From Catajapyx aquilonaris (lineage: Eukaryota): a stretch of 54,503 bases of DNA. The stretch's first letter is position 1, and each line of letters opens with the position of its first letter. The stretch is taken from positions 1-54,503 of the forward strand of contig KZ538675.1 of NCBI GenBank assembly GCA_000934665.2. The letters are read 5' to 3'. Position numbers and translations under genes: made by a program. The notes beneath the pieces were generated by a model. It searched no databases. It saw nothing but the letters and a program-made list of their open reading frames with translations, and was not told where the DNA came from. Positions 5,073-42,700 of the stretch are shown here, piece by piece.

Positions 5073-5982
5073 CTACCTAGCCTCGCTTATGGAGCTTAAA
5101 CCTATCTACGATCTAAGTGGTTTTGCTTTGTAATGTCTATTCAGCAGGTTTGTTGTAATTGCCATTGAATAACGACTTAGGCGGCAGCAAGAAGTGGTCC
5201 AAGGAAAATGTCTCCTGGCCACACCCGGAGAGGAAAATTCTGGGAAAATTACAGCTTGCTCCCGGCTTGCTCCTAATTACCATCGGTATCCAGTTGGCCA
5301 GGAAATGAGATCTTACCCTTTCTTTGTCCAGCATCCAGGGTGTGGTCCGGGACCTCAAGCGGCTTGGGTCCACCCACGTCCAACTTTCCTTTCTTCTACT
5401 TGGCGTTGCTAGGTGTGGTCAGTGAGGCTAGCCTGGAGAGAGGGTAAGGATGGTGTGGGCAGGAAGTGGGCTGCTGACTCTGCACAAAATTTAGACCTTG
5501 GACTCTGCTCTAAACATACCATGGTGGCTACGTCACCTTCAGCCAGCATCCAAACAGGGTGGCCAGACCACTTCCAGTCTGCCTGCATTTTAATCCAGCA
5601 AGGACCTAAAGACACAACCATGGATGCAACGTAGGGGGGTTTGAGATTTAGAAGTTCCAATGTATATGGAAATGGGCATGAAAATGTGTGCTGTTGGGGC
5701 CATTTGTAAATATTGTGGGGACATAACGTCAAGGCTTCTTTGAATCTACCCATTATGAAAGTGTCCGTCGCAGTATATGGTATACAGTACTGGTATACTT
5801 ACAATTTGTTATACAGGATCATAAGAAGATAAATTCCAATGTGCAGGCAGAGGCTTTAGAAGTGGTCAAGATTTTTTTGGCATGTTAGTTAGGTTGTGAA
5901 CACCCCCCCCCTNCCCCCCCCCCCCCCCCCCATGAAAATCTCACAGGTACCTGTACGCTACTGGTTTCATGTGCTTTTTTTT

Positions 5983-8744: not shown

Positions 8745-19163
<10,419 letters not shown>

Positions 19164-20349
19164 CTCCTCCTCCTGGGAGTTTCCCAATGCGGCGTACACA
19201 ACCGGTAGTCCCCGGGGCGGGTGCAGCGGACAGCCTGCCAGCTGGTCCTGTCTGCTCCCTCGCCTTCCTTACGCACACAGCACCCACTCGAAACCGAGTG
19301 GTAAATAGAACCTGAAGCGAAAGTGGATACACTTTCTCTCAGGAGAGAAAGCCTGGGCTCCCCTTTCTTCTTTTTTTTCTTTTCCTTCTTGTTCCCTTCG
19401 AGAGAGTAAACCCCCGCTACCTCTTCCCTTCTCGCTTCGCTCAGCTATGAATAGGGATAGTGCCAGAAAGTCACGCCGGAACAGGATGTGGCGCTTGGTC
19501 GACCAGCACTACCACCAGTTTTACCGTACACCTGTATAACAAAATATGTTAAAGACACAGAGGATAGCATTATTAATTTTAAAAGCTGTTTAATTTTTGT
19601 CATATAAATTAAGCAAAAAAATTATGCTTATTCATTAAGATTAGATTGGCTACATTGTTTGCCCAGGATTCGCTAGATGTCGCGCGCAAAAGTGGCTAAA
19701 GTAACAAAATTTTACAGTTTTTATATTATAAAATTTTAGCCTCTTTGCTTTTATGTGAAGAACTCCATCATAGAATTTTCCATTACTACTTCGCCATTTT
19801 GTGTCTAAAAAGTGGCGGAAGTTTTGAATATTACTCTGGCTATCTCTGGAAGCCCCCTGTAATTTTGAAATGAACAACCACTTTATCAACGTGGGTTTCT
19901 GCAACTCTAACGTTACCAGTTTAATTGTGGGCAACTTTGCAAATTGCAACTGCGCAAATTCCCATCCCTTCTGCTCATTTTGCCAGTTGTAGTCACTCTT
20001 CTTGATCTAACACTTAGATCGCATATTTGGATATAATGCATAATGATAATTAACCTGTGCTTGTTGCAGTCGTGATATATTTTTTAAAAATACTGAAATA
20101 CTGTGTGTTCAGCGCAAAAAAAACTTTTCTACAAAATATGTAATACACTGGTAAAAGTCGATTCAAATTTCCATGCACCATTGCGTTTGCGCCATACGTC
20201 ATTTCCTGTGACGCGGATTGTGATTGGTCGGCATTTTCTTTGTCTCTTAACTGACAACAGCGCTTCCTGTACATGTGGCGTCCCGAAGTTCAGTCGGGTT
20301 GAATTTCAGGCAGATTTCTTGTATTGGAGTCTTGCCTGCGAGAAGGGGC
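19164..20349. promoter_or_regulatory. Divergent (head-to-head) promoter interval between S6K and the PIWI-like gene
   Basis: The two ATGs (19163 minus, 20350 plus) are about 1.19 kb apart. The interval has CpG-containing patches and a reverse CCAAT (attgg) near 20224. Promoter function is inferred from position only. Confidence 0.5.
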
Positions 20350-23300
20350 ATGGCTAGTAAGAAGGATGGAAACTTGGCCCAAGACCAGGGCTCCTGGAGA
20401 GTGGGAATAACTGACCATCAACAATCAGATGGGGCTGTTGGATGGGCTGACCGCGGTGGTGGTGACCAGCCAGTCGCAACGTCTGGTGGTGATGAGTGCG
20501 GCGACCATGCAGCTCGAGATGCAGCTGATGAAAAAAAAGTAGGCAAATAAATGTTTTTACAATAGATCTATTATTATCATAGCATGCATTGTGCATACCA
20601 TCCTCAGGCCACAACTTGAACTACACTCTGCAAAGTTTTGACACCCTGTGTCTCATTGTTGTTGATTGTCTACCAAACAATAAATGCAAATGAAGCGTGA
20701 TTAATTTCATTGTAGACTGATGTCACTGATGCTGTCATTGTTATGCTGATTTGCCTAGTTAGCAATGGCGATTTCAGTCTTTGGGATTTAGAATATGTAC
20801 AGACCACAAAATAGAGTATTCAAATAAGTGCTTTTCAGCAATTTTGTTTGGGTGGGAAAGAGCCAGAGCAACAACGGCTGTCTGGCTATTAGGTGGGACA
20901 GATGAAGATAGAAACATAGAGTAAAAAAGAATACAGGACAGACACCTTACTTGTCAGTCTCCTACCCCCAAAAGACATTTTCAGCTTGGGTGACGTTTCC
21001 AGTAAGCAAAGCTACCACAGATGTTCTGTAGCTCTTAGGGCTGTTTGAAAAATGCAAGCCCCACCATGGCAAGATGGACACAGCTTTGAGATTATTTTTT
21101 TAAATAGCCCTATTCACTCCCATAACCTGCTGGGCTTGGATCTTGAGTAGGCCTACACTTCATGCCTTTACACCAAGACAGTAATGCAACTAACATGAAG
21201 GATCATCCTTCCTTTTCCTATATTGCTGTAGCTCACTATTGTGATCGGGAATTATTGTAAATGGAGCATGTTATACAACAGGGCAATTATAATTGGTTTA
21301 ATACACTGTAGTAATGAATTATTGATTTATCGTGATTTATTTACCTTCCAGATTGCTGATGCATCCAACTGTTACTCATTTTCCACACAAGCTGATCTTC
21401 CCCTTCTGATGTCAACTGACTATTCTTGTGACAACAGAGAATACATACCTGCATTTAATTACCCTAATTTCCCAAGTCTGGAGAATCCCATGCTCTTTGT
21501 CCACCCATCTCAATTTGCTACAAGTGATGGCATTGCTAACATGATGACGAATTTAACTTTGGACGATCCTGTTGGTGGACAAGGAGTGAATGGGACTGCT
21601 TGTGGACTACCTGTGGGAATCAGTATGGAGAATGCTTCCTCAACACTTAATTATCAGTGTGATTCTGGAGAACACAGTCTCATTACTCCCAAATCTTGCA
21701 AAGGGCCTGAATTGAGTTATGGACCAATCATCTCTGGTTTTTCATATGGCTATAACTTGGCCAATAACACCGTTTCAAATGAGCAGTGTAGTTTGTATTA
21801 TGGCGCTGCTGCCACCAGCTGCTGTGATCAGCATAATGTCGCTGCCATTTCAAATGTTGGCCTTGGCTTTGATGAATTAACATCAGTCCCTAAGTCCAAT
21901 CTTTTCAATGAATGCATCAATAATTTGGATGATCAAAAAAGCCACAGCATCAATCAGAAGAATTTCAGCAATGGTGACCAAAATTATGCAATTCCACTAT
22001 GCACAGATGTGAATAGTGATCCCCATCAGCATGTGTCCAACATTGGGCACATGTCCGTGACAGACTCTGAGCAGGGTTACTCAGGAAAGCCAATGGAATC
22101 CCGGTCTAATGCTTTTGAGATTGATGTGGATAGAAACTGCATTGCTTTTCATGTCTACACAGTTGACGTCCTTCCAAAGCACTTGGCTGAGAGTTACAAT
22201 GAAATACTACAGGCACTTGAACCTCATACGGGCACCCTTGGACCCTTTTACATCTCTGGATCCCATTTGTTTCTTACTCGCTTTATTGGAAAGGAGGTAA
22301 GGCCCTGCATGCATCAAGTTTTTTATTTTTAAATTTAATTTATCACCCTCAACACAAAACAACGTTAAGTGTTAAGTGCTGTGTTAAGCGCTATTTCTGG
22401 AATATACTGCTATTTATAATGTAATGATTTCCTTTGTTCCATGGTATATTGTTTTACTCTTTCCTTTAACAGCCCATCATATTGGAGTCTTATATCAAGG
22501 ACTGCCATTCATTTGTAGCCATCAAAATTTGTCATGTCAAACCACTACAGTCAGATGACATCATGATCAAAGAGCTCAACAGCTTTTTTCATGACAAATA
22601 CAGCAACAACCTAGTAATGCATCAGAATGGTTGCCACAAATCCAGGTTCAACAATCCCCTCAACTCTGACAGTCATCATCTTCAATTGGGGCAAGAAAAC
22701 TCTCCAGCCATTAATAAGGCTCATGAATGTGATCAGCTGCTCCCCACAAACCTCATGCAGAAGATTATTCCTACCCAAAACGTCTTAAGCCTGATCTGCA
22801 ACATCAAGAGCAAATCCTCGCCTGACAGCTTTATGCACAATTGTGAGGTTCAACTTGTAGGTCAGAGTGTCCAGGCAACTTACGACAAGATGGTGTATAC
22901 TGTGACCCAAATTGCTTGGCACCAAACACCAGGAAACACTACTGTCGCTTGGGAAGGAGGATCCATGACACTTTCACAGTACTACGAGCAGGTCAGTTAC
23001 ATTAGGCGAAGTTACATGAAGTTTTCAAGATGAGGAATTTGAGATTTTGTGACATTTATCACTACAATGAAGTTTTAACTCCTCAGATGTATGGATTAAG
23101 CAATAAGTTGGAATTTGACCAGCCCCTACTTCAGGCCATCCCTCAAGGAATGAAACAGTGTGAACTTACTGTTTCAATTCTCGTGCCACAACTATGCTAC
23201 TTGTCTGTCCAGACAGATACCGTAAAGCAAGAATTAGACCAGGTAGCCAGAGATCCCCCGATGGATCCCAAGATATGGAGGGCCAATATGGATGACCTGG

Positions 23301-24045
23301 TGAGCTACCAATCAGATCAAGTAAAGAGCCAGTTGCTGGCCCAAAGGGACATACATATCAAGAATAATTCCTTGCCCCCAAATGAGAGGGTATTAGAGCC
23401 ACCTCAGGCACTGATCTTTGGACGTGGAAGTATTGCCAGCCTTACAAACTCCGAGGACTTTAGTGATTTGACCCAATGTAAGTAGGCCTACATAAAAACA
23501 ATGGATTGATTTATTTAAATTTTGTTCTCTCATACTGATATATGCCACCTGGAATAATAATCAGCTTACCTTTACATCAGTAAAAATATCAACTCCAGCA
23601 TGAGATGAGATGCACTGGTCTTGCATATTAGTGGCTGATAAAGGTGCTTAGTGTGTCAGTATGACATTTTCACTTGCCCATAGTCTTGGCAGCTAACTGA
23701 TAAGTAGGCAGTCCCCCATATTTCCATCGTCAATAACAATGTGAACCAATAACTTTGATTATACTAACTCTTGCTATACATAATTATTTTGTTCGCAGGC
23801 AACTACTTGGCAGTTCCTATCACCATTGTGTATTGGGCTATTCTTGCTCCCAAGAAACTTCAGGGAGAAGTAGAGGCTTTTCTCGAAATACTGATTGAAG
23901 CTGCACACAACCTAGGCTTAATATTGCCGAAGCCTTACTGCTTGTGAGTAACAGGATTTGTCACATATAGAGAAATAATACAGGGTGTTCCAAAGCACTT
24001 ACAATTCATAAAACACTTATTTAAGGCACTTGTAAAATTTGTTTT

Positions 24046-24129
<84 letters not shown>

Positions 24130-26449
24130 GATACCCTGTGATAGGCCCCTTGGGCCTCTTAGGGGATCATCTTTTGAATTACCGACTTTAATCATTTGCC
24201 TGAAATGTGATGGATTTTGACAGTGGGAGGAAACGGGAGAACCCCGAGAAAACCCACGCGAACACGGAGAGAACCCATCGAAACTCTATCCACATAAGTA
24301 TCCTCCGTCCGACCCGGGGATCGAACTCGGGACCTTAGAGGTGGAAGGCTGCGGCGCTAACCACTCGGCCATAAAATTTATATGTTTTAAATGCATTTAT
24401 TTCATGCATACCAAGATCTTACTTTTTTATTTGATGCCATGGTTATTTTTGTATTTCAATCGCGTAAGCAGCACACACATTGACACATGTAAACATGTAA
24501 GTTACTGAACATATCACAAATCTTGAAACCTTCAGAAAACATTGAGGTGAACATGTCATAGTATGTAAAAGCATTTATGCTGTAGTAGCATGAACAGTTG
24601 CATAAACGTTTGATTTGAAATGCTTTTTTTAAATACACATTGACAACAAGATCAGGACAGTTTCTTAAATACTTAAATATGACAATTGACCATTTGATGG
24701 AGTCACCTGATCACTGTATGTACTGTATGATCCACGCCACGTAAATATATGCTTTTCCAGCACACAAAACTTACTCCCCATTTCATGCCCTGTGTTCCAT
24801 TTCTTCATATGTTCATATGATATGAAAGCACATTGGTAATTTTCCCATTTTCCACACCTACCCTTTCATGCCTTTCCCTCCTCAAAGCAATGCAGACATG
24901 CCACATGCCCATTTTTAGGTCTAAAAAACATGTCAGAACCATTATTTTTTATGGTCAACTTGGACGTATGTTTTTAAATAAATTTTACAGTTGTCATATA
25001 GTTATTGAGCTCAATATAATGACCTGTTAATGGACAAGTTTGCAATTCATCCCTGATCAGGTCCACTGTCATTACTACCATTACTATAGTAGGCCACTAC
25101 ATAATAGTTTTATAATACTGTGATTAATAATTGTTAAAGGAATTTTAGAGTGCTTATTCATATGCCAGCTGATATGAAATTTCTGACATCTGGCACAAAC
25201 TGGCTCCACAGATTCTTGGAGTCTATTGTCAAATTTTCATTGCAGAAAATATCTGTCTAATGGAAAGGCAGAGACATACACCTCAACTGTGGAGTTCCTC
25301 CAGGCAAGGTGTAAGAAGGACCATGAAGTGGGCTTGCAGCTGGTCCTTACCATTTTAACTCAACAGGATCAGATATGTTACGGTGCCTTGAAGACGTTAT
25401 GCCATTCTAAACTGGGCATTGTCAACCAGACACTTGTCGGCACCAGCATCATAAGCAAGAAAAACAATCCCTACAATCTGGAGGAGACAGCTACTCGCTT
25501 GGCTTCCCAGATAAATTCTAAGCTTGGTGGGGAAGCATGGAACATTGACTTCCCTGTCAAAAATCACATTATGTTTGTTGGAGTGGAAGTGTCCCAGGAT
25601 TCCACAGACCCTTCTGTAACTGTGGTTGCTGTGGTGGCCACTACCAATGCAAATTGCAGCCAGTACTACTCTGTGGCTCATTGGGAGGCTTCCAATCATT
25701 CCACACTGGCCACTTGGATTGGGCATGATGTGGCCAAAGCAGCCACGATCTACGCTCGCTGCAATGGTGGGCAATGGCCTGTGTATGTTGTGGTCTACAG
25801 GAATGGGGTCATTGACAAGCTGGAATCAGTTGACATGATGGCAAAGGAGGCAATAAGCATTAAGAATGCATTGAGGATGACCTCACCCAAGGTACAGTTT
25901 TTAAAATTATTAGTAGGAAATCGAGCTAATGTATGCAAGGGAGTAACTTATAAAATGCTATTTCTATCAAAATAACTGGTTGTTACCAATTTAACTACCT
26001 ATGAGTATTGCTATGCATCAAAGGTGTTACATCTGTGCATAATTGGAAAACATATATTTTACCAGCCGTGTAAGATGGCCTTTCTGGTGATCAATGAGAA
26101 CTGCAGTGCCCCTCGGCTGATATGGGATGTGCAGGCCATCCCTCTTGGAACAGTTTTGGACCAGACCTCACCTGCAACTGGCATGAGAGAGTTCTTCCTG
26201 GCATCCTCAAGGGGCCCCAAAGAGAAAACAGCTCCTGTTCAGTACTCCTTCCTCTGCAATGAGCCAGGAATAGATGTAGAAAAGCTGCAAGCACTCACAT
26301 TTCTTTTAACATTCATGTATTTCAACAAGTCTAGAGCCATTGCCATACCTGCTCCATGTATGTATGCACAGAATCTGTCAAAAATGGTAGGGAAAACAAT
26401 GCACTCCCTCCCACATGAGAGTCTGTGTGACAAGCTGTTTTATTTATAG
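20350..26449 (+). CDS. piwi: Divergent PIWI-clade Argonaute (N-PAZ-MID-PIWI), 7 exons, about 1072 aa, predicted non-slicing
   Basis: Exons 20350-20538, 21352-22296, 22473-22991, 23087-23477, 23799-23943, 25246-25891 and 26066-26449 total 3219 nt and are open and phase-consistent. PAZ: LVGQSVQATYDKMVYTV...SQYYEQMYGL...DQPLL...LVPQLC. MID: YGALK, NQT, QINSKLGGEAW. PIWI: MFVGVEV, VVYRNGV, PLGTVLD, PAPCMYA, C-terminal DKLFYL*. Exon 1 is the least certain. Confidence 0.9.
20955..21085 (-). mobile_element. Second degenerate RTE-like leader remnant, in PIWI intron 1
   Basis: tctcctaccccc-aaagac...gcttgggtgac...aagctaccac...tagctctt...caagcccccacc...gcaag aligns by eye with 4930-5050. Confidence 0.5.
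24048..24128. repeat. (AAT)27 microsatellite, forming the 3' tail of the adjacent minus-strand SINE
   Basis: Perfect AAT run read directly. Confidence 0.95.
24129..24371 (-). mobile_element. tRNA-derived SINE in PIWI intron 5
   Basis: The minus strand begins tggccgagtggttagcgcc (A-box) and contains gagttcgatcccc (B-box), a central gtgggttttctcggggttctcccgtttcctcccac and an (ATT)n tail. Confidence 0.85.
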
Positions 26450-26708
26450 GTCGTAGCAAGAGCTTGGTCGTAGCAAGTCGTAGTTATGAACCTTTTCCTA
26501 TATGGAATTAACCTTTGTTTTCCTTTTAGTTAACAGCCTCAGGAACTTGTAATTATTGTATGTTTGCATAACGTGGTAGGGTATATGTTTGATTAATAGC
26601 ACCTGTCATTTATTAACAGGTAACCTTTTTAAAGCATTATGCTCATTTTCTTGTGTGTTAGTTATATGTACTCCCATTTGATATTATCCGTTTATGTTTT
26701 ACTGTACC

Positions 26709-27004
26709 GGTACTATTAACTGCAAAAGTACTGTCGTACTGTTAAGGCCCATTCACACAAGCCGTCGCGGTTTTGGTCTTTGGTCGGGTTGACGCCGCGG
26801 ACCAAAGACCAAAACCGTCGACGGCCTGTGTGAATGGACCTTTACTAATGTGATGGCGTCTGCAATTTGTTGTTTAGCATGGGTGTTGCTGAGTTACGGA
26901 TGTTAATTTAGCAATATTTCGGAATCCACAACCCATGCTAAACAACAAGTTGCGGACGCCATCACATAACAGTGCACGACATTACTTTTGCAGTTAAGAG
27001 TACC
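26709..27004. mobile_element. Fold-back/MITE-like element with long inverted arms, interrupted by a nested MITE
   Basis: Left arm ggtactattaactgcaaaagtactgtcgtactgtta[insert]...tgtgatggcgtctgcaatttgttgtttagcatgggt pairs with acccatgctaaacaacaagttgcggacgccatcacataacagtgcacgacattacttttgcagttaagagtacc. Confidence 0.8.
26745..26841. mobile_element. 97-bp PIF/Harbinger-like palindromic MITE with TTA target duplication
   Basis: tta|aggcccattcacac...cggttttggtctttggtc...gaccaaagaccaaaaccg...gtgtgaatggacct|tta. Confidence 0.8.
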
Positions 27005-27023
27005 ATGAAGGCATGTATGACTT

Positions 27024-27156
27024 AAGTATGAACACCAATTTTTGTAAAGACTAAAATATGTATATTAATGAGTAGTTTTTGGCAGTACAGTGTACTGCCA
27101 AAAACGACTCATTAATATACATATTTTAGTTTTTACAAATATTGGTGTTCATACTT
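27024..27156. repeat. Near-perfect 133-bp palindrome with essentially no loop
   Basis: aagtatgaacaccaatttttgtaaagactaaaatatgtatattaatgagtagtttttggcagtaca-g-tgtactgccaaaaacgactcattaatatacatattttagtttttacaaatattggtgttcatactt; about 3 mismatches. Confidence 0.92.
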
Positions 27157-27180
27157 CTGAAGCTGTGTAAGTTACTCTGT

Positions 27181-27186
27181 AATAAA
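27181..27186 (+). terminator. Candidate poly(A) signal of the PIWI-like gene
   Basis: First AATAAA I found downstream of the stop at 26449. Confidence 0.5.
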
Positions 27187-27727
27187 ACGAATCATGTTCA
27201 TGAAATTGCCCTTTTGTTTATACACCTGACGAGAACCAGCTGAGTGACAGATTTTGACTAAAGTCCAGTTGTTTATGTTAGTCAAGTCAATCTTGTGATT
27301 TCTGAATTTGATTTTTGTTACTAATTATCGGTAATATTAGATAGGATCAAGAGCTTGATAGGATTTACACTTCTGCATGGCTTCTGCAGGATATTATTTT
27401 GTACATGGCACGCCATGTTGCACACTGAGCATGCGCCGTAGTTACGAACTAAAATAAATAAACAAAAATCAACCCGTGGCTTTCAAGGTAAATATTTCAA
27501 TTAAGTCTGTCTGCATTAAATTAGAACAAAAAGTTCTAGTTTTATGTATTGGATGTACGCTGCTGCCCTCTGTGTTCCGTGATCAAGTAGCACGTCTTGA
27601 GAAGTCTTCCCGTCAATCCATGCGAGCATAGGATCTTCTGCTGCTGTAACCTTTTCTACTCCCGCTGTCCTCTTGTCCCTGATCTTGCTGTGGAGCCGGT
27701 GTTTCATCCCACTTGCGGACACTAATA

Positions 27728-30700
27728 ATGGACAGATTCGGCGAGAGCAACTACCGAGACGGCGGGGATGATGAAGGGTGAGGTGGCAGCAGCGGGATTT
27801 GTCAATCCAGCTGATTGATTTGTGAAATATTTTGCAGGTTGACGGAAGAGGTAGAGGCCCTCAAAGCGATCTTCATGGAAGAGGTGGAGGTCAACTACAA
27901 TGACCAGTACGTATGGATAGGTGGATGAGCATGGTGGAGGTTTCTAGTTAAAGTTACTGAGGAATTGACTATGTAATCATACTGGCGTGCTGCCCACTAC
28001 TGCCATATATGTTGACTTGCACAAGTGTGCAATCACCACGTTCTACTGGTATTACAGATTTGAATTTTTTTCAAGGCTGTCGGATGGGGGCCACAGCTCG
28101 CGTTGCGTATGGATGGGCAGTGAAAAGCTGTTTTTATGAATTAATTTTTGGCATGTTCTGGTTGCTTTTGAAAGTGAAAATATGGGAGCATGATGTGGAT
28201 AGAGCTCATGAATTAGACAGTGGCTGGCAACATATAAGGTCACTACAACAAATGTAAGAAAAAGACATTATCCTCCCAGGAAGGGGTTCTCATGGAGATT
28301 ATATTCAACACCTACGAATAATGGTGGGATGTCAATTGCTATAATGTCAATCTCTTGCAGTGTCTGTGATATTTCTTGATTATACTTATCGACCCAAACA
28401 CAGTAATCAGTATAGGAGGGGTTTTTGAAATGGTTTGCTGAAATGGTAGAATGTGTACTGCTGAATCATCATGCATTAGTACATTTTGGTACAGCCTGGT
28501 GACTCGTGTGGTGACTGCAAGCAATCTTTCGAGTAGAAATATTACCAATACATGAAATCAGCCCACTTTTCACCTTCCGTGAATTGCATTGGAATTATAA
28601 CAATTTTGTTAATTTTCAGAGGGAGACCTGTGGAAATAGTGACTACTTTGCACCCTGCAACAGCAGAGGATACTGAGCATCAGTTTGTACGTGTGACCTT
28701 AGTTGTGATTCTTCCTCCTAACTACCCTGACTGCAGCCCTGAAGTCCAGATTCGAAACCCACGAGGTCTCTCTGATGAACAACTGGGAAAGATGCGCAAG
28801 GTCTGCAAGACTAAGTGTGAGGACTACCAGGGCACTGCTGTCATATATGAGCTTATAGAGGTACAGTAGATTGATAAGCTTATAGTTTGGAATGTGATCA
28901 TAATTTCTGCAATGACTGTTCTTGAAGAATTTCATTTAGAGTAACAAATTGTATAGTAGGATGGGAGACCGAAGCAGTTTGGAGTAGGGGATATGGTGTC
29001 CGACTGCTAATCGGGAGGTCCTGGGATCAAATCCCGGGGCCGGCAACTCTGACCGTGGTTTTCTGTGGTTTCCCACGCTGCATGCGATTGTGAAATGGTG
29101 GAGTTATGATCACCTTTAGTTTTCTGGCCCCCCTTGCAATATAGATGCCATCTACGAATATATCAGATTAGTGTAATCGCCAGACCTTCAAAACTTAGCA
29201 AAGGTCATCTCTGTACGTGTTACCGTTTTTGAATTTTAAAATACTTGCCATGACTTTTGACTCAGCCCGTGTAACTTAAAATTCATTGGGTCAGAGATGA
29301 CCAAAACATAATAAAAACCATCCTTACGCCGCCTATGATGAAAAAGAGGCGTTATAATAATTATTTACTTCCCAAAATCATGAATGTATGCAGTACAGGG
29401 TTAAACTACTTAATATGTGAGGGATAAGGATGGCAGAGTTCAGGCCATGTCATGTAGCCTCTGAGGACCTGAGTTAGATCACCTGATTGGACCAAGGATT
29501 TTTTTCAGAAAGAGTTTCAGTAGATCCTCTTCTTTGATTTTTCTGGGCTCTCTGGTTACCTCCCACAATCCATAGAAGCACATAACTTATTAAAGTTATA
29601 AACTGAAAATATGATCCTGAAGAGACTACATGCCTATCAGAGGCTTGAATCTGCTGGACTTCTCCCCTCGCACCACCCAGATATCACTTGCAATGCCTGG
29701 TATCTGTGACGCAATGGTCTCTAACATCCAATCTCGGAACAGGTTTCTCTCGCCTGGGCTGGCAGAAATATGAATTCTATGTGTACCACGAGAGAGTTGC
29801 ACAAAACACGAGACAATGCATGTCTGCAGCCAGTGCAAGCAAGCAGAGGTGCCCAAACTGGGGTTTCCAAGAGGTATCGGTCCTCATGGGTTACCTGAAG
29901 GGCCATGAGAATTTGGCAGGTATGGTGTGTTCTGTGCTTCTGCCCCACCCTGCCAAATTTTCAGGCCCTCAGGGATGCCTGGGAAGGCCGCTGCTTTCAC
30001 ACAGTGAAAGTGTTACATTTATGTGCTGGAAAAAGCAATGACGAAAGCTATTCACAGTAAAACATCTATAAAAGTCGAATCTCCATGGGACCGGGAAAAA
30101 ACTTTGAGTTATAGAAGATTCGAGATAGAGAAGATTGGAATTTTTTAAGCATGTAACTCTATAAGGAAGCCTACCTATGAGCCTACCTTTATATCATGTG
30201 ACAAAAGGTGTTCAAAACTTAAAAACAACTGTCACTACAGTATCACACTACAATGTGACTCCTCATTGTTTTGTTGTAAAAAAGTATGTTATTTAATCAA
30301 AGGCAGATGGGAATGTCTGGGCCCATGGGACCTGGTGCAGATGGCATGAGTCATTACTGGTAGACTGAGATCAGGAAAGAGACTTTCTGTGCATGTGGCC
30401 TACTCTCAAACCTTCGGCTGGGAAATAAGAAAATTTTCTGTACTCGCCAACATGAACTTCGACTTAGGGAGCCTGAAAATGCATCAATATCCCATCGTAA
30501 GGCCCTGTCTGCACTTCGAGTTATAGAAATTCGAGTTAGGGAAGTTTATTTCTTATTATTTTACATTGTGACCAACCAAGCTCATAATTTTCTTCGACTT
30601 ATAGAGAACTTCGACTTATAGCTAAGGTTTTTTTTCTTCTTCTTTTTCAAAGTGTACCCCGCGATAGGGCCTGAGGCCCCCTTGGGGGTGGGGGGGTGGA

Positions 30701-33700
30701 ATACCACCATAGGGTGACTGGGAGGGGATGTACAAAGGGCACGTGCAATGTCTCTGATTGGTCATTTTGTGAACTCCCCGGGGTGGATTACAGGATTAGT
30801 CTAGTGGCGATTCCACCCGAGACGAAGCCAGAGATGGCCCAACTCTGCACGAGATGAAGGGGGGGAACCCCAGGCTGGGATAGCATCCGGGACCTTAACA
30901 TCCGTGGGTGCATACATTACAGCAGCGCCACTTTGCCTCCCTGACTAGTAGAAGTTTTACTGTATTTCCATCTGGTGTGTTTTTTAAAAAACAAAATACT
31001 GACATGAGGAACATTTTTCCGAAGTAGCCTAACTTGGTGTTTGGATGAATGGTGAGGAAAGGGGACTATTTTGGTTGGGAAACTCGAAAAACGGCTTGCG
31101 AAAGAAGAAGTGACTCATGTGATTCGTACGTGCCTTTTAGTTCACGGTTCAGTCCAGTTTTAAAATGTCGGGGAAGAGGAAGGGGTTGACACGAGTTCAA
31201 CATATTGCCCGAGTCCGGGCTGATGGTCCAATGGATCAGGAAAAATTATGATTTTGCACCATATTGAGGTAAGGTGCTTATTTTTGCTCTCCCCATTTTC
31301 CTCTCTTTCTAGCGGGCAAAAATATTAGTAATGTCCTTGATCTGGTTATAGCGGAAATGTGTCCATAACGGAAAATTCTTGGGGTCCCATGCGATTCCGC
31401 TATACACGGGTTTCATTGTACCAACCTAATTCCTCTTTGCAATGAGTGGATGAGCGCATTACATTGTCCCTTATTTTTGCAAAGTTCCTAGTCACAGCTG
31501 CAAGCGTTTCACAAGTGATCCTACATACCTGTTTTAAGAGTTGGTTTTTTTCTCTGTTGCACCCGCAGACAGTAAAGGAAGTGTTGACCAGCAGCAATAC
31601 ACCAACTGGTCAGTGTCCCATCTGCCTGTGTGATTTCATGGATGGAGATGCAGTATCCAAAACCGAGTGCTACCACCACTTCCACTGCTACTGCTTGGGG
31701 ACTTACGTGCAGAAGTGTCTGGAGGAGCACAAGCAAAAGCAAGCCGAACTACCACCCTGGCAGCAGAAGCTTGATGTCAAGGTAGGAAATATGCCTTCAT
31801 TTATTCTCTTTGTACATTACACGAGGTAACTGCACCGCTTGTAGTGGAGGGCATTTTTAACCAATACAGTATAAGGCCCTGGTCATTTGAGAATAAATCT
31901 GTGACATCATAAACGACTAGCAGCAACTATCAGTGTATAAGATTCAGTTGCAATACCTCGAGCAGTATGGTTTTTGGAGGCGGTGCTATCAGTGGAAGAG
32001 GGGCATGGCCTCAATGTTGCAGAAGAATGGTATTTGTAATATTTTTTTGAAATGTCTAGCAGGCAGGTGTTAAGAGTCAATTGATTGTTCAGATGACTCT
32101 CAGGCAACTTATCTCCATGAGATACGATGCACATGTCACCAGAGTAGTACCCAGATACCAAAACATTACATCTCTCTCTGGGCTTGCATTCAATTCAGTT
32201 CTAGGATTCACAGTTTCTGGATGTAAATATCAGCAGTACTATTAAATATTTGTGCCTTGGTAATGGTTGCCTTCTACATCACAATTGCATTACGAGTTTG
32301 CATAAATCTTTTTTCAGATTTTCTTGGATTTGCAGTTTCACTTTGCACTTAATAATTTATGTGGTGGTATTTGAGTGTTAAAATGTTAACCTTTAACTAC
32401 GTAGGTGGAGCCTGAGGGGCTCCAACGGTATATTTAAATATCTGCTTATCAACTAAATTGTTATATTGGACTTTTCACATACAGAAAGTACAGTTCAGAT
32501 CATTAGGCTTCCGAAAACGTAAAAATCTCACACTGAGTCAGCATATTCCGACAGGGAAAAAATTTTAATTAAAAGGTTACATCATGTTTGAGCTGCTCAG
32601 GCTTCACCTACATAGGTAGAGCTTGAGCTGTTCCAGGAGGGACCTGTTCCTCATGACGAATTTTTTTCAACCAAAGAATAGAGACTAAAAATTTTTTTTC
32701 TTTCCTTTTCATTCTTAGGAAGGTTTTTCTGACAAAGTCACGGAAGGACAGGGAAAATAAAATTTAATGAAAAAGTTACATGCGTTTAAATAGTGCTTGG
32801 ATCCTCTCAGGCTCCACCTACGAAGTTAAGGGTTAAGCACATTTTTTTATGTCCAAAGTTTTGTCGATGTGAACTAAATGTACAATTACATATATTGCTT
32901 ATGGACTTTCTGGTGAAATAGATCTTGCTAGATATTTAGCAGTTGCAATGTATTTACAACCATAGTACACATTCTAAATTTTCTAATGTCACTGCATTAC
33001 CAAGGATTGAATTAAACATGTCAAGAGTACGATACCAGATTTTTTGATTCTTCGATAATTAATTCTATACATCTTATGGAAGGGACAAAAAGGTCTGTCT
33101 ACAGTACCGTACCACTCATAAAGAATGGTACGATTCTATAGACGAAATAACCCCTGGGTCGCCAGCATGTTTTTAAGTGTTGCAAGGAAGTCCGAGAAAA
33201 GGGAATCAAAATGAAGGAAAAAAAGAGAAGAAAAAAGCAAGGCAACATCAAATCCTGGTTAAACATTTTGGTAATTGAAAATTTCATTTAAAAATCGGGA
33301 TGGGTCATACGAGTCGCTAGAGGTCAACCTTGCCCATGGGGTCATGGCGAATAAGGTTGGGAATACTGCTGGACATTGAGGATAAACATTTCGTCCATGG
33401 AGTCATACCATTCTTTATGAGTGGGACTGTACATTCATCAGGGCAAGGAAAATGCAATCCATGTTCTGTCTCAAGGAAACAGCTACAAGTTGGTAAAGAG
33501 GTGAATGTGCCAGTAAGTATACTAACCTTGTTAGGATTTTCAGGTGTGCATATTTGGTTGCCATTCTGATGCTTTATTTTTATTTTGTTTTGTTCAAAAC
33601 AGAAAATGTTTAGATCTCTAATCTCTTATTGAATGTGAAGTATGGCATGAGTTAGTCACATTTAAGTGATGTGACAGTGACTTGGGAACTAGGCTATGTA

Positions 33701-36700
33701 AACAATATCTTCGTGTTAGTGATTTCAGCAGTACGGTATTCTACGCCACAATCATGGATCCATTCTTCATTACTCTTTTAACTACTATTAACATTAATAG
33801 TAGTTAGTATGATGAAAACCAACCCCATAAGTGTAGTTTTGTGTATATTGGCCAGGGTGCATGGTCGATAATAAATCCAGAACAAGTAGTTCATTGTTGT
33901 TATGCATAGTTGGTAATATTTTTCTGAACAAGTAATAGCAAGGATCTGCCACTTGTTTTGGGGTTTAAAGTGGGTTCTACACAGTCGGTCCAACTCCAAC
34001 TCGGACCGGATTCGACCATTGGACCTTCTGTGTAAATGACATTCTGTGTCGGATCCAACGTTGGAGCCAGGGAGGCCAGCGCAGGTCACCTAGGCAGGTC
34101 GGAGATGGGAGAGTGGGCGGGGCAAGACGTCAGATTGACTGTGTCAATCACTGTTCGACTCATCCCGGCTCTTCTAGTCGAACTCGATGACCCCCACACC
34201 ACCTTCACCTCCACCTTTTTTTAGTACACAAACTTGTCCCCCACCCTCCACCCTCTTCCACAAAAACGTGTCCCCCCCACCTTCAAACATCGAACGTCGG
34301 ACATCGAACAGCAGTCAGCCTCAGAGTCGGAGTCAGACCGACTGTGTAGAGCCCACTTTAAGGCTGCATTTACCTATGAGGGATTTGATCAGTAATGAGC
34401 TTTTTTTTCTTTTTAATAATGTAATGGATACCCCGTGATAGGTCTAGTGATGAGCATTGCTAAGAAATGGAACCGATTGTTGGGGCGAACAATCGCCTTT
34501 CACCCTAAACATTTGGTTTCATCGCACATCAAATCGCTCATATGTAAACATGGCCTAATACTGATCAAGTACCCCAGCCTTAGTGACAGATGGTGACATG
34601 TTATTTGCAATTATTGTGACTGTGGTCTCCACTGATTGTGTGATGTGTCATTGGCAATGAGAGTAATTGTCATAGTTGTGTAACAAGGTCAAACGGAAAT
34701 ACAGCCAGGAAATAGTGTTCCACATGAGGGGCTTTCCCCTGAGAGAAGAGAATCCTTGATTACGTAATGCTGTGCAATCCTACTGTTGTGCCAGCTTGAG
34801 TGAGGTGAGTTGTACAGTAGGATGATGGGGTGTTCCATGTTCTACTGTATTAGGAATTTGGCTTGATTTTAGTGTGGTATCATGTAAAAAGTTTTGCAAA
34901 GCTAATCTGAAACTATCCTGAAAAATCAGTAATGTAACCAAATTAGTCTGGCCAGGATTCTGAAAACATGTAGCCAATAATTACTACGATGCCATGTGAT
35001 GCACTAGTGATACTATCAAAATACAGGTTGAGAATCCTTTATTCAAAATTCCAAAAATTGAAAACCTCCAAAATCCTATAAAAGTTTTTTAAATGCTGAC
35101 ATGACGCACCACAAATGGGAAATTCCATGTGAGTGTAGCATGACTAGCATTGTTGCATGTATCGCTACTTATATAATAATTATANNNNNNNNNNNNNNNN
35201 NNNNNNNNNNNNNNNNNNNNCCCCCCCCCCCCCCCCATTTTAAATGCAAATATTCCAAAATCCGAAAAAAATCGTATGTCCGAAACACCTTCCTTCCCAA
35301 GCATTTCGGATAAAGGATTCTCAACCTGTACTGCATCCTTTCAGAATGTTAATCTGAGGTTCTGTATAAAATCTTGTGAGCTTATAATAGCTCCCACAAA
35401 ATCTTCCTCCTGCAATAGTTATCATCTGAGATGACTCACAGAAAAAGTACTTGATTCTAATAACTACGCTTTAGACTAACTAACCTGTAGTCAGTGATCT
35501 GCAATGGGAGTGTCACAGTATTTGATAGCCACTAAAAGTGAATAACTATAACATTTCTGACACATACCAATATGTTAAAGTACCTTCTGGCTTTCCTTGC
35601 ACAGCAGTTGCGCTAGAATATATTTATCAACTCGAACTGTTGAAGAAAGTGTGACGCAGGCTGATAATCCGTGGACTATACTGGTACAGGAATAAATAAA
35701 TACCAAACGCAACATAAAATAGCTAAATCTAAATGTGACTATCAACTTGTACCAGTGAGGACATGTTTTTTAGAACTGAATAATTTGGCACTGCAATTCG
35801 CTGGTCAAGTATGATTTTTACCAAGGGGACTCCTCAAAAAAGTGTACACCGGCTCTCTTGAGTTGCGGCTCTCCACGGCTCGCCAGTACCAGTGAGGGTG
35901 TACACTGGCTCTCCGAAGTGACTACCCCCTTGATTTTTACAGTGTTCTTACTTGCCTTCAAATTAGGCTGTAATTTCGATTTTGCAACATAATGGTAATG
36001 CCACCCTAAGTTAGAATGAAATATTAATTTTCATATGATATTCAGCACAGCTGTTTGCTTCTGTCTCTTTTTGATAATAAATTGCTTTTGCGGTATTAAA
36101 ATACTGGATACAAACTGGGACTTGCAATGCACACTATTCTTTTATACATACCTCTGCGCTAATCGTGAATGTATAGTTTTCACCGGTTTGCACTTTTATT
36201 TATGCTAGTCATTGCGGCCAGTTGCGGCACATTTACCTGTATCCTGCACATTTTTTAGTGTTACAATTCCTGCTTCATTTTTTGGATATAAATTTTTGCC
36301 TTTTGGCCAGGAACATGTATTGCGGTGACAAAACTTGCTGGTTGCTACTGCACGTGCAGCACACACAAGGGCAATAAGCCTACAAGCACAAATGTGACCT
36401 CGACATTTATTTTACCTAATTTGATGCGCAGTCACACGGTTGTCCTCACAAGACTCAAGCCCGATTATATTCCACGCCCACTTCCACTAGAATAGATACA
36501 TGCTTGGCTTGGGTGCTCAAATGGTAGGGGTGCCTTCATTCTGCGGGGAAATCCCTCGAACTGATAGGGAAGTCCGTCCTTTTTTTTTGTATTGGGGAGG
36601 GGGGAGGGATTAATGATAAATAAAATGAACATTTAAATGAACTACTAAGAAATTTAATTTAGTAAATGTTATCAAACATGAATCATGCAATCAATAATCT

Positions 36701-39700
36701 GGAATGTTGCCGCTGCTTGTGAATAGGGAACGTGAAAGTAAGGACCCGCCATTTTTACGGATGGTCTAGGGAGGGCCTTTCCCGGGCCTTTCCTGATTGT
36801 ATAAACTGCAGCGTTGCCAAAGCCACTATAATGTACCGTATTTTAATAGTTAATTATGTCAGATTATGTTGTGTTGACCAGCAACATGTATTTACATGCA
36901 CAGTTGACCAATTTATTTACACTTGAGATTTTTTAAGTCTACAAGTGTTCTGGCGAGATTCCAGAGTGGTTTTTGTCTTATCTGGAGACCAAAATTCACG
37001 TCCCCTTGCCCCGGCTGAGGTGATGTTTCGACCACCTGGCCAAGGATTTTTGATGGCCTCTGAATGCGTCAATATTAGTTTTCTTCGTTGCGCCTTGTGA
37101 TTGGACCAATGATGTAGGCTAGCTTATATGCCTGGGGCAGTAATGTCGAAAAAATTTGCGGGGTGAAAGTTTCGCATTAACCGTACATGCAACAAAATGG
37201 AGTGAGAGAAAAAAAGACTTTCTTTTTATAGACTGCTTTACTTTTTAAATCATCTTACTGGACGTAAAATTTTAATCATGTTGACAAAATTGTAAGAAAA
37301 TTTAATTCGGGATATTATTCGAATGTAACTGGGGCATGTTTTTAAATTAAAATTAAGCCTTTAAAATCATCTTAAAATATTTCGTAGTATTAAAAAACCC
37401 AAAATGGCACCCCAATACGTTGATTCTCAAGCAGGTATTAGATGCCAATAATATTGTGAGTGTAGAAAAGTCAGTACCGTATATAAACTTATAATTATTC
37501 TGATTTAAGAGCTGGTGAAGTAGGGCTAAGATTCAGGTGCATAACAAGTGATTTTATTAGAAGGGAAGCCTAACAACTTATTTCCTTAAAACTCGTCATT
37601 AATTCACTGATGTTCAATACTAAAAGCTTTGTAACTTTCTAAGAGATGACCCTAACTATATATGACGGATAGTGCAAATCGTCTTACAGTATACATAACG
37701 TCTTTAATTATTATTATAATAGTACGAATGTATATGCTAAGTGTCGCTAATATTGTTGGACAGCATATCGCAGTGTTGTGACTTATATTTTGGTCGAAAT
37801 CGTTTGCCAAGTTCCTATTTGTTGTATCGGCTCCTACGTTCGTGGTGAAGTACCGATTTCATTCACCTCGGGTGATTCCCCCCATGCTGCATACCTTATA
37901 GTAAATAGTGACTTATTTTTGAAACTTGTTGGACCTGTTTGACATTTCTGGAAAAATTCCCCACTCTTCGTGGGTAACCAATCCCAAAGCATATCATTGA
38001 ATTCGGGCAAGATTCGGGGTATTTGGTGGATGGTATATAAGGCAGTGGGAAGTGGGAGTAGTCTCAGTTGTCGCCCGGACTTTCACAGTAGTAGGCCTAG
38101 TAGGAGAATTGTACACGGTGAGTAACTTACTAACTTTTGAGTCAGACAGTGTCATTGCTATTTTTCCCCCTATAGGAACAACTTGAACAAGCCATGGTTT
38201 GATGTTAATTAGGGTGGAATTCATGTGATCAAATTTTGAATTAATCGGCAGTCGTAACACAAGAGCTGTAAATATTTTAAAACCTTCCATATTCTTGATA
38301 GCACAGTTGGTTATAGAAAACACGCCAGTTTATTTCAAGAAGTGCTACTGTCGTATGACAATGGCATAGTGAGTGGTATTTTATGCGATTTGCATAATTA
38401 TGTATAGCTAACTTGAGTGGAGATGTCACGAAAGTACAGAATCCAGATAGACACAAATTAATCAACAAACACACCGTGTTAAAGTTTAGAACGTCTGAAG
38501 GTACCAATCAGTTTGTGTATCGCACAAGTCGCAAAATATATTTTTGGGGTCGATAGCCCGTACCAGGCCTGTACTATATTTTCTTTTCCGTTCAAGTTAA
38601 ATATCCGGTTCTGCTTTCATCACCATGATGTGGCTGTTGTTTTTTAAAACTGAGAAAGTCAATAAACGTCTGTAATGAGCTTACTGGATCTGGATGATGG
38701 GAAACTGGGGAAGTTAATTAGAATGCCATGATATTTTGTGTCAGGTTTTTATGCTGATCGTCTGATCAAAATTTCTTGTATAGAAAGTGACCTGTCGGTA
38801 CAAAATTGGCAAGTCTGAGGGAATAATTTGACTCCCTGTGTAATGGATGTTTTTAAAAACTGGCAATCTACGCTCTAAAAAAATTTCGAAAATATTTCCC
38901 AGAAGGCCTCGGCCTTAATAGTTTCCAATTTTACTGAATTTTACGTCAAACGTCAAATTACGGAAGACCGAGCATGTAACATATTGACTGTCAATGAAGA
39001 GGGCTTGAATAGGCATTTAATAAATTATTAAAGTTGTGAAAATTTAAAGTGGATTTAGCACTGCATGAAAATTTTTGAGATGAAAACCTGCGCAGCATGC
39101 CATGGGTATGCCATGTGTACGCTAGATGCCATTTTCGAACCGTATTATCTCAGTGTCGCAAAAGATTGCAACTTCGGTTTTCACATCGACTCGTTGATGG
39201 CACTTCTTTTTCCTCCCACGAAATTCCCCACGAGGCATCACGTGTGCATGACTTTCACCCAGCCGGCAAGTTTTGACAAACTGTGCGATAATAAATCAGC
39301 CATTTAGATCCGCTCCACAAACTTTTTATTCAAATTTTGTAAGTTTTAAATTAATTTTTTGCCCCCTACTTATGGACCGTGATATTTTTATTTTTTCTGT
39401 ACCCCGTTATCTGGCCGATAGGCCATTTCTAGGGGGGTGGGTTACCACCATTTGTGGTTTGGAGCGATACATATACTTATATCTTAATTGCTCCAAGGGT
39501 AATTAGGAGGGGATGTGCAAAGTGCATGTGCGCTGTCGTTAATTGGTCATTTTGTGAACTCCCCCGGGTGGCTTAGTCTATCGGAAATTGCCACCCGAAA
39601 CGAAGCCAGAGATGGCCCAACTCTGCACGAAAGAAGGTGGGAACCCCGGGTGGGGATTGAACCCGGGACCTTAACTTCCGTGATCGCACGCGTTACCGCG

Positions 39701-42700
39701 GCGCCACTCCGTCTCCCACAGGACCGTGATATTAATCCTAATGCATCCTAAGGGCATTCTTCTGGCTCCCAAACTCCTGGCATTAATATTTAATAATATT
39801 AGTATTTAACAAATTCATCGTTCTTGAACAAGATCCGACTTAAAAAATTGGTCATCATCAACTAGTGTCTGAAAAATTGATATTAAAATTCCGGCAGATT
39901 TTTAGTGCCTGCTGTGGCCATTTCAAGTGCAAGAAAATTTGCAAATTCTCGACTTTTGAGCCCAGGTTTTCACTACTCGGGGGACATAATTAAAAACTGA
40001 GTTTCACTTTTTTATGAGGAACAATGTCCAATAAAAATTGTTGCTGTTAACTGAAACTCAATCCTGAGAGGTTCCAACCGGTTTCAAGCACTTGAGAATA
40101 TGAGAGTTAGGTCTCCCTATTTTTACCTTCTTTGTGACCCCATGTAGCGTAAGTGTGAATTTTTCCTCATTTTTAAAACAAGTTATGAAATTCGTTAATT
40201 TTTGCTTTGAAAATGGTTTTTGGAGAATCACCCATATTATGTCGATCATGTTTTACAAGGGAAAGAGCGAAAACAGGGGTCCAATGTCGCGAAATTGACC
40301 AAAAACGCGAAGTTTTTTTTTGTTTTGTTTTGTTTTTTTTGCTCACGAACTATACACGTGTCAAGCTTCAAACTTGACACATGGCAACTTCTGGGAGTAT
40401 ATATTCATGTCACCAAATATGAAATATGTAGAGCAATTACATCGCAAATTTTCGGAGGTCGAAATTATTGGATTTGACCGATGTAAAGCGAGGCGCGTTT
40501 GTTTCTGGTTTTAATTTGGGAAGAAACCTACCTTTCTACAGCTCTAGAACATTTGAGGGGGGTGTTGGAAAAAGGTGATAAGTGATAACTCACAAAAGTG
40601 TAATTTTTCAGAAGAGTGAATTGAAGTTTGCATTTTTTTTTTTTCACAAATCATAGGGAATGCAGGTTTTGATCTAGTCTGTGTTGCCGTCTTGTACATG
40701 ATACGTGAACTTGGAGTATACCAAACTGTTTGTCATGTCTTTTACATAGTTGCGAGGTGTTCAGGTCAAAAATGAGGGTTACCACCTTTTTCCACCACAC
40801 CCCTCATTTAACTGCTGCACTAATGGGTTTTTTTCGTAACTTTGTAAGTCGCAAATCTTGTTAGATTGTGAGTGACCAACTCCTGTTACAAGTTATAATT
40901 AACTTTGCAAGCCTGCCATTAAACAAATACAATGACTAAAGATGGCGATGCTTAGATGCGTAACTTGTAATACCGTCAGAGGCGGGAATGTCATGAGATG
41001 GGATTGCAAAATGTTACTATCTACTAGACTATATTGATTGCATTAAGATCTGCTTCGACAATCTGGTTCATACAGAAAGTATTCTGATAATTAGGCGAAT
41101 TAATTTTCTAAGAAGTTAAAGTCAAACTTTGACTTGATTTTTCGACAACTTCTGATATTGTGTCAGATTGGATTTTCCCTCAAACTCGAAAATACCTAAT
41201 GCGTCATAAAGGGATTAAAGTTCATCATGGGCTGACCTCATCTCCATGCACATGATTTATCTCATTTGGAGGCTGGTAGTTTATTTGTTGCTTACCAGAA
41301 AGTTGGTGTTACATTGCAGGTTGTGCAAACTGTCAATCCCTGTACATTTCTCAAATTTGTTTTATTTTATTTTATTGGCTAATGTTAAGAGGTTGACAGT
41401 TCAAATAGGGTAATTTAATTACTGCTCACTTACTGCATGAAAATCAGGTGTTTGGTAATTTTGGAATAGTGTATGACTTTCAGTATTGTTGTGGGGAATT
41501 TCTAGTAATCTGGTTGTGATACACTTGACGCTATCACTTGACGCTAAATCTTGATTATAGATAATTATAATTATGTTGGTGTTTGTTACAGTGCAGGTTG
41601 TGCAACAGTCCCTGTGCATTTATCAAATTTGATTTTTTTAAATGGGCTTATGTTCCAATAAGGTAGTTTAATTACTGCTCACTGATTACATTGTTGTGGG
41701 GAATTTCTAGTAATCTGGTTGTGATAACCTTGGTGCTATCTAAATCTTGATTATACATAATTATATAAGTTCCCTTGTGAAACGGGATGAATAGCAAAGA
41801 TTGACAGTGTGTTTTTAAACTTGTTGCAGTTGTCATCGCTTTAAAATCATGGCTAAGTTCCTAACACAAGACAAGATGGTTTTGACAAAAACCTTCCTGA
41901 TTCTTTCTCTGTTCAGCATAATAATGATATCAGAATCCAGAGTGGTGAGTGACACAGTACCAATCAGTGCATGTGTATAATGAGTATGTGCTACTTTGAA
42001 ATAATGACAGACCCATTTCATGACTGTTGCATCCATGGCTATGGTGTTTATATTCAAACGAAACATGTTTTCTTAAAAAAAATACAGATTATTTGTCCAG
42101 TCTGCCGAGAGCCCGTTTTGGTGGACTTGCAAAGTCTTCTGGCTGCACCATTGCCCCAGGAAGAGTCGTCTTCCGCCTTTTCCCCAACTGATGAGCTGAA
42201 GGAACTGCGGCAGAAAATGGCAGATTTATATGTGAAGCAGAAGGAAAAGGGCGGGATTATTGACTTAAAAGAGGAGGAGAATCGGTTCTTACTGTTTACT
42301 GGAGAGGTGAGGGCAGGTTATGTTTCACATTTTGCAGGTGAAGGCTTGTCCTGACATGAAACTAATGCACTGGGTCCAATGGAAAAGTCAAGGCATTTGT
42401 TGTATAGGGGTATTATGATTTTCAGTTATTGGACATGAAGTTCAATAAAACTTGTGTTAAATTATGGAAGCAACGCAACATACTTTTTACAATGAGAATG
42501 CCTTGATTTTTACCTATGATAGAACATATGGGACATATTAAATTTAAAGTGTACTCTGCAATCTCTTGATTATCTGAATGTGAATGGCTATTTTTTCAAC
42601 AGAAGGTAACTAAGGGAAGTATATGCAAGGCAGTTTGCGAACCCCAGGATCTGATAATGGAAAATCCTGAGGATATGCTCTTGAGCACGATAATCGATCC

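Follow-up and report, generated by a model that had tools for sequence, protein, structure and literature searches.

A divergent PIWI-clade Argonaute gene of Catajapyx aquilonaris with a replaced slicer tetrad and a retained 5'-phosphate pocket

Non-slicing members of the PIWI clade of Argonautes are already known. In Siwi the slicer site is the tetrad D670, E708, D740 and H874 (DEDH), and while E708V reduces slicing, H874K nearly abolishes it (PMC7015924; the PMC numbers given here refer to excerpts of the papers concerned). One Asp-to-Ala change has been treated as enough to abolish slicing by Siwi (PMC13535231). Drosophila Piwi (6KR6), which has DVDK at these positions, is non-slicing and was proposed to serve as an RNA-guided binding platform; a conserved Gln (Q645 in Siwi, Q589 in Drosophila Piwi) together with the C-terminal carboxylate gives metal-dependent binding of the 5' phosphate, at a position where AGOs have Lys (PMC7015924). 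The subject of the present analysis is a PIWI-clade gene at 20350-26449 (+ strand) of contig KZ538675.1 (assembly GCA_000934665.2) of Catajapyx aquilonaris, the whole stretch of 54,503 nucleotides being referred to as the window. What sets its predicted product apart from the known non-slicing PIWIs is extreme divergence, an acidic core and the failure of protein searches to find a close relative.

The likeness to Drosophila Piwi consists of membership of the PIWI clade, a non-canonical tetrad and the Gln and C-terminal Leu of the metal-dependent 5'-phosphate recognition site (PMC7015924). However, Drosophila Piwi keeps both Asp residues whereas the model keeps none of the four, and the model, unlike Drosophila Piwi, has no basic or RG-rich N-terminus. 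Other non-canonical PIWIs are the pea aphid Api-Piwi8, with a DDR triad (PMC3230593), and many PIWIs of mites and ticks, which are without DDH (PMC7659050). As in the gene described here, replacement of catalytic residues in these extra PIWI-clade genes has left the PAZ/MID/PIWI architecture in place, but they are reported to belong to recognisable PIWI/Ago3 groups, whereas our model belongs to no identifiable subclade; the excerpts of the two papers show a function for none of these paralogues (PMC3230593, PMC7659050). The mosquito Piwi6 silences without needing its tetrad (PMC13535231), and the piwil1 duplicates of cichlids keep their catalytic residues (PMC11753138).

The reading we prefer, with a probability of about 0.55, is that the gene encodes a selected, highly divergent, non-slicing PIWI which still anchors the 5'-phosphate end of an RNA and acts by binding. 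Replacement of the tetrad residues by E844, S882, N916 and Q1047 would leave no slicing, the PIWI-type metal-dependent pocket with its C-terminal Leu would anchor a small RNA carrying a 5' monophosphate, and the protein would bind without cutting, serving as a platform or scaffold that is guided by RNA or holds an RNA end. The main argument for the second step is that all of the pocket residues and the terminal Leu persist in a fast-evolving protein.

The slicer site and the 5'-phosphate pocket

The model was aligned (MAFFT) with the 150 best homologues from an exhaustive HMMER search, and residues were counted per filled column. Comparison with solved structures was by phmmer, and the tetrad is numbered as in Siwi (PMC7015924). 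The residues which occupy the four positions of the tetrad are:

25586-25588, + strand: E844 (GAA), where Siwi has its first catalytic Asp, D670; D in 144/150 homologues
25700-25705, + strand: S882-T883, where Siwi has its glutamate finger, E708; T883 is an additional residue; E in 116/147
25802-25804, + strand: N916 (AAT), where Siwi has its second catalytic Asp, D740; D in 126/139
26369-26371, + strand: Q1047 (CAG), where Siwi has its catalytic His, H874; H in 77/104

None of the four DEDH residues is kept. The same correspondence was obtained with the solved structures, where GVEVSQD stands opposite GYDVCHD of Siwi and GMDVYHD of MILI, YRNGV opposite YRDGV, and CMYAQNL opposite C(K/N)YAHKL of EfPiwi and CQYAKKL of Drosophila Piwi. 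The position of the glutamate finger was fixed by its distance from a conserved Ser upstream, the Ser-to-Glu spacing being 10 in 100 of 106 rows; at that distance the model has S882. The initial annotation, made from the sequence of 25246-26449, had reported the changes of Asp to Glu, Asp to Asn and His to Gln, all of which are borne out here by phmmer and by the alignment columns, but it had missed the loss of the glutamate finger. All the motifs it quoted, including YGALK, NQT, QINSKLGG, VINEN, SRGPKEKTAP and YFNKSRAIAIP, were located in the translations of 25247-25891 and 26066-26446, and the alignment with solved PIWIs which it had proposed as a check places E844, S882, N916 and Q1047, not DEDH, in the tetrad columns.

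All four columns were filled in 101 homologues, a sample biased towards divergent cluster representatives. The tetrad was DEDH in 68 of them and differed at one position in 16, at two in 10, at three in six and at all four in one, ie 33/101 were non-DEDH at one position or more, 17/101 at two or more and 1/101 at all four (P0127, with EGIR). Given these counts, a four-fold loss is not chance-like. Since the DEDH site is required for slicing, as judged from the established active sites of RNase H-like proteins and Argonautes, and none of its residues is present, the protein should be inert as a nuclease. The earlier proposal that it is non-cleaving is therefore well supported by the sequence, and more strongly than was first claimed, as all four residues are replaced.

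The residues of the 5'-phosphate pocket are, by contrast with those of the tetrad, all in place. Their codons, assigned from the alignment columns, are:

25379-81, + strand: Y775; Y in 142/144 homologues
25391-93, + strand: K779; K in 140/143
25427-29, + strand: Q791; Q in 146/146
25508-10, + strand: Q818; Q in 149/150
25520-22, + strand: K822; K in 150/150

The terminal Leu (L1072) is also kept (L in 94/104 homologues), so the full PIWI-type set of Tyr, Lys, Gln, Gln, Lys and C-terminal Leu is present by residue identity, as the initial annotation had suggested. Q818 is the PIWI-type Gln at the position where AGOs carry Lys.

The gene, its family and its divergence

The interval 25246-26449 proved to coincide with exons 6 and 7, the two at the 3' end of a larger gene. 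Exons were built upstream by means of open frames and splice signals, giving a model of seven exons and 1072 codons with no internal stop and with GT-AG at all six introns:

20350-20538, + strand: exon 1 (putative); ATG at 20350, 63 codons of open frame, GT donor
21352-22296, + strand: exon 2; AG acceptor, GT donor, phase 0; acidic N-terminal extension followed by the start of the N domain
22473-22991, + strand: exon 3; L1 and the first half of PAZ, from matches to Pfam PAZ and EfPiwi L1-PAZ
23087-23477, + strand: exon 4; C-terminal half of PAZ and L2, very divergent, from splice sites and cover by full-length BLAST alignments
23799-23943, + strand: exon 5; start of MID, from splice sites, a split-codon phase that fits exon 6, and tblastn
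25246-25891, + strand: exon 6; the 5'-phosphate pocket of MID, then the initial two thirds of the PIWI (RNase H-like) domain
26066-26449, + strand: exon 7; end of the PIWI domain, terminal LFYL and TAG stop

Confidence in the model is lowest for exon 1, which has neither homology to anything nor RNA support. It lies within 19000-20600, where the CpG observed/expected ratio is 0.76-0.88, compared with 0.18-0.19 in the body of the gene; a CpG-rich setting of this kind would suit a promoter and counts in favour of a real gene. In exon 2, for which a Pfam search gave no family, a Ser/Asn/Gly-rich extension runs from residue 64 to about residue 300, after which the Argonaute N domain begins. The segment 25247-25891 encodes 215 residues (P0001) and 26066-26446 encodes 127 residues (P0002) that end in LFYL before the TAG. 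The intron between them, 25892-26065, begins with GT, ends with AG and is in phase 0, and the frame across exons 6 and 7 is unbroken; the spliced frame and the C-terminal LFYL are thus as initially described. No marks of a pseudogene (stops, frameshifts or broken splice sites) were found in the 1072 codons and six introns. A tblastn search of the window with the model and 71 full-length PIWIs gave no second PIWI copy, and no Rfam match was obtained over the whole window.

PAZ, MID and the RNase H-like Piwi domain follow one another in one polypeptide. Pfam PAZ was matched in exon 3 (E 2.7e-07, 31.0 bits, cut-off 28.8) and Pfam Piwi in exons 6 and 7 (68.3 and 62.5 bits, cut-off 28.9). Among solved structures, exon 3 matched the L1-PAZ region of EfPiwi (E 2.1e-06), exon 6 matched Siwi (E 1.2e-15) and the best relative of exon 7 was Drosophila Piwi (6KR6, E 1.5e-16). 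The best solved relatives were all of the PIWI clade (Siwi, MILI, HILI, MIWI, EfPiwi and Drosophila Piwi, E 1e-15 to 1e-16), and human AGO1-4 were weaker in the phmmer searches with exons 6 and 7 (E ~1e-6 to 1e-5). Full-length alignments with PIWIs run from about residue 300 to residue 1072. Folding covered exon 6, for which AlphaFold2 with an 80-row alignment gave a predicted local distance difference test (pLDDT) value of 88.0 and a predicted template modelling (pTM) score of 0.70; a Foldseek search with this model returned structures of the PIWI clade at ranks 1-12 (TMq 0.57-0.68). Assignment to the PIWI clade therefore agrees with the first description by domain content, by solved relatives and, for exon 6, by the structural prediction that it had called for. 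Siwi, MILI/HILI, MIWI and EfPiwi, the best sequence and structure matches, share the domain order, the fold and the 5'-phosphate pocket with the model. Canonical slicing PIWIs differ from it in having DEDH and basic cores and in being closer to one another; P0137, for example, reaches 600-725 bits with PIWI structures whose sources range from sponge to mouse.

The divergence of the protein is extreme by each measure used. With exon 6, HMMER gave 514 matches at E <= 0.001 among 1.84 billion representative proteins, none of them at 1e-30 or better and the best being 38-40% identical. Word-based searches of 5.8 billion clusters with the same exon produced 925 and 138 candidates but no match at E <= 0.001, and in the ESM Atlas only generic Piwi-domain clusters were found (best 0.95). 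Full-length identity to PIWIs was 23-29% in the 38 best BLAST alignments. Of 72 full-length rows the model had both the lowest median identity (23.1%, where the median of medians was 33.1%) and the lowest best identity (26.3%). Trees were built without an AGO outgroup. The end branch of the model was 2.19 (median 0.81), the longest, in a FastTree tree of 72 rows, and 2.07 (median 0.68) in a quick IQ-TREE run of 46 rows, ie the model and 45 of the 71 other full-length rows, from which P0067 and P0083 were deliberately excluded. Placement within a PIWI subclade was attempted and given up, as the model joined other long branches (P0067/P0083 in FastTree, P0131 in IQ-TREE) and lay in no well-supported clade. 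Orthology with the nuclear Piwi of the Drosophila type was likewise rejected; P0128, a Drosophila-Piwi-like protein (1150 bits to 6KR6), is in a well-supported clade which excludes the model, the placement of the model itself being unsure because of its long branch.

Both trees put P0128 at a distance from the model, which makes the loss of the tetrad in the model independent of that in Drosophila Piwi. P0128 also lies deep in its clade and outside the 15 least basic of the 73 full-length cores, whereas the core of the model is acidic. The closest parallel for the tetrad is P0127 (813 amino acids, EGIR), in which all four positions are likewise changed and the core is nearly neutral (net -1, Arg 3.5%). 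As P0127 sits together with P0128 in a different, well-supported clade, its resemblance to the model is convergent. Searches of a collection of open-access papers yielded no account of a PIWI that has an ESNQ-type site or whose core is acidic.

A random frame of matched composition would be open over 1072 codons with a probability of ~1e-26. The intact frame implies, by inference from the branch length, that it has been under selection for most of its history, because under neutral evolution a branch in excess by so much would have brought with it many stops and frameshifts.

Surroundings of the gene

The gene lies in an ordinary gene-dense eukaryotic context, and no transposase or reverse-transcriptase open reading frame (ORF) adjoins it. 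Its downstream neighbour, at 27611-42351 (+ strand), encodes an RWD domain (28537-28869, Pfam E 1.6e-14) and a RING finger (31446-31826); the first exon of this gene is in a CpG-rich stretch (27300-27900, observed/expected 0.77). Word depth in the DNA run X1 showed the PIWI exons within 24200-33000 to be single-copy. By the same measure very high-copy short repeats (depth >= 2e5, compared with ~35 for single-copy sequence) occur at 24200-24370 and 28904-29197 and also at 30080-30960 and 32430-33000; those in the PIWI intron and in the neighbouring gene look like SINE-type (short interspersed nuclear element) repeats. Just 3' of the PIWI stop, at 26709-27156, there are nested inverted repeats resembling miniature inverted-repeat transposable elements, with arms of 66 nucleotides (95%), 37 nucleotides (95%), 34 nucleotides and 29 nucleotides and a DNA depth of ~10,000. 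These would fall in the 3' untranslated region, since no AATAAA follows the stop before 27181. Intron 5 contains a perfect (TAA)27 microsatellite (24047-24128). The assembly has a gap (N run) at 35185-35220 and single Ns at 5913 and 53842. Exon-sized ORFs with Pfam matches elsewhere in the window are:

3212-3601, + strand: PWWP, below the Pfam cut-off
12975-13343, - strand: protein kinase, below the Pfam cut-off
42570-43319, + strand: DUF5662 (E 3.5e-11)
48401-48751, - strand: alpha-type carbonic anhydrase (E 3.7e-18)

Weighing the readings

A number of observations weigh against the reading given above. The core of the model (residues 321-1072) has a net charge of -9, an isoelectric point of 6.26 and 2.3% Arg, compared with medians of +20, 9.14 and 6.0% (minimum Arg 3.5%) for 72 other PIWIs. 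The N-L1-PAZ-L2 lobe, at -12 compared with a median of +8, is the lowest of 77. Such charges are unlike an RNA-clamping channel. The neighbouring ORFs of the window, when pooled, contain 4.1% Arg, so the shortage of Arg may in part reflect the genome. Conserved positions in the groove are also changed, ie K956E (K in 108/122), G998E (G in 100/104), T999K (T in 87/104), W1033K (W in 96/103) and G1035R (G in 96/104), together with K1048N, in a near-invariant column, and R1038A, where R in 71/105 is under the near-invariant threshold. The further alterations to nucleic-acid-contacting motifs noticed in the initial annotation are thus real. Exon 4 alone has no solved relative at E <= 0.01, and no close relative or orthologue was found in the HMMER, word-based and ESM Atlas protein searches. 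Retention of near-invariant columns is complete in MID (10/10) and partial in the PIWI domain (24/35), but the difference is not significant (Fisher p = 0.089) and is suggestive only. A normal guide-target clamp is made less likely by the acidity of the core, the alterations in the groove and the erosion of PAZ/L2. Of the guide binding proposed initially, the retained pocket stands, while the core, the groove positions and exon 4 count against it; guide loading and the mode of action of the protein are what we infer from its sequence.

Expression of the gene is only hinted at. Contigs of the sequencing runs were placed on 24200-33000, an interval which takes in exons 6 and 7 of the gene, and parts left uncovered are not evidence. 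The kind of run X5 is unrecorded, and no run on record as RNA contains the stretch. X5 would nevertheless appear to be RNA-derived, because one of its contigs (719 nucleotides) joins exons of the neighbouring RWD/RING gene across introns, with 27611-27776, a 70-nucleotide piece (inferred from depth), 28620-28858 and 31567-31781. In the PIWI gene, a 243-nucleotide X5 contig lies on exon 6 (25282-25524) without mismatch, and 233 nucleotides of a 299-nucleotide contig lie on the exon 7 side (26063-26295), also without mismatch, the other 66 being unplaced in 24200-33000. Depth was zero in the intron bins 24494-25081, and the exon 7 contig departs from the genome within 3 nucleotides of the predicted acceptor, as a spliced transcript would. 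On the other side, X5 depth on the PIWI exons was 3.1-3.7, compared with 16.4 on the neighbouring gene, and the junction of exons 6 and 7 was not confirmed in X5, as the 66 nucleotides are not on 25826-25891 and the bin 25670-25963 has a depth of zero. With its start at 26063 the contig would suit an exon upstream that has CAG at its end, which is true only of exon 3, the end of exon 6 being AAG. The 66 nucleotides could come from exon 3 joined in frame to exon 7, both boundaries being in phase 0, or from an antisense transcript using a minus-strand GT at 26062-26061.

One alternative is that the protein is selected but holds no guide RNA, the PIWI fold having become a scaffold or decoy (for example one that titrates PIWI cofactors) and the pocket being a leftover or binding something else. 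We regard this as unlikely, though worth serious attention. The core is acidic and the N-PAZ lobe the most acidic of the set, the groove motifs are altered, and the exon for the C-terminal part of PAZ and L2 is unrecognisable alone. Arg-rich (RG/RA) motifs in the N-terminus, which bind Tudor proteins, are typical of PIWIs. The first 320 residues of the model are acidic and Ser/Asn/Gly-rich, with 1.6% Arg, one RG and one AR, ie such an N-terminus was not found. The four least basic of the 73 full-length cores (the model with ESNQ, P0066 with DEDS, P0107 with DQDR and P0127 with EGIR) all have non-canonical tetrads, a hint that slicing and positive charge may repeatedly be lost together. Med13 provides a precedent for an Argonaute-like fold serving as a scaffold (PMC7810384). 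Survival of the five pocket residues and the terminal Leu at a median identity of 23% is, however, hard to explain unless the pocket is used, and the MID-PIWI lobe is still slightly basic (net +3). A decaying or recently dead copy, ie a transcribed pseudogene whose frame is still open by chance, seems to us a little less probable again. It would account for the longest branch and lowest identity of the set, the absence of an orthologue from the protein searches, the low RNA depth and the contig at the exon 7 acceptor that is not joined to exon 6. It would also account for the model keeping only 54 of 77 near-invariant columns, a few of the N-terminal ones probably through alignment noise, where other full-length PIWIs keep a median of 94% (minimum 64%). 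But 1072 codons are open across seven exons with 6/6 canonical introns, and the excess branch (~1.3 or more replacements per site), if neutral, would be expected to have given tens of stops or frameshifts. The losses are moreover patterned, all ten MID columns being kept, and the fold is confidently predicted, so that only a very recent loss of function would fit.

That the protein is a weak or unconventional nuclease, with E844 standing in for Asp and other residues completing the metal site, is very improbable. The change of Asp to Glu keeps a carboxylate and there is an acidic residue, E877, five residues upstream of the finger position, but S882, N916 and Q1047 have neither carboxylate nor imidazole, and in Siwi H874K alone almost abolishes slicing (PMC7015924) and one Asp-to-Ala change is treated as sufficient (PMC13535231). 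A more speculative proposal, and one we think improbable, is that of an orphan 'half-Argonaute', a selected PIWI fold of which only the 5'-phosphate end pocket is kept, with the catalytic site erased, the RNA channel acidic and no clamp for a guide-target duplex. Such a protein might work in the piRNA pathway as an endogenous decoy or as a regulator; it could, for instance, cap or sequester precursor ends that carry a 5' monophosphate, or titrate PIWI cofactors. If this were true, P0127, P0107 and P0066, with their erased tetrads and neutral cores, would be convergent examples of the same undescribed functional class.

Non-slicing PIWIs show a route from an RNA-guided nuclease to a pure binder, for which Drosophila Piwi is the one structurally worked-out case in the papers considered here. 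The Catajapyx gene is an independent and more extreme case, with all four catalytic residues gone and the pocket untouched. Should its product be made and carry a guide, it would show how much of a PIWI the anchoring of a guide really requires; should it carry none, the PIWI fold would here have been put to another use, of which examples are rare. Either way, the number of slicers in a genome is lower than a count of its 'PIWI genes' suggests.

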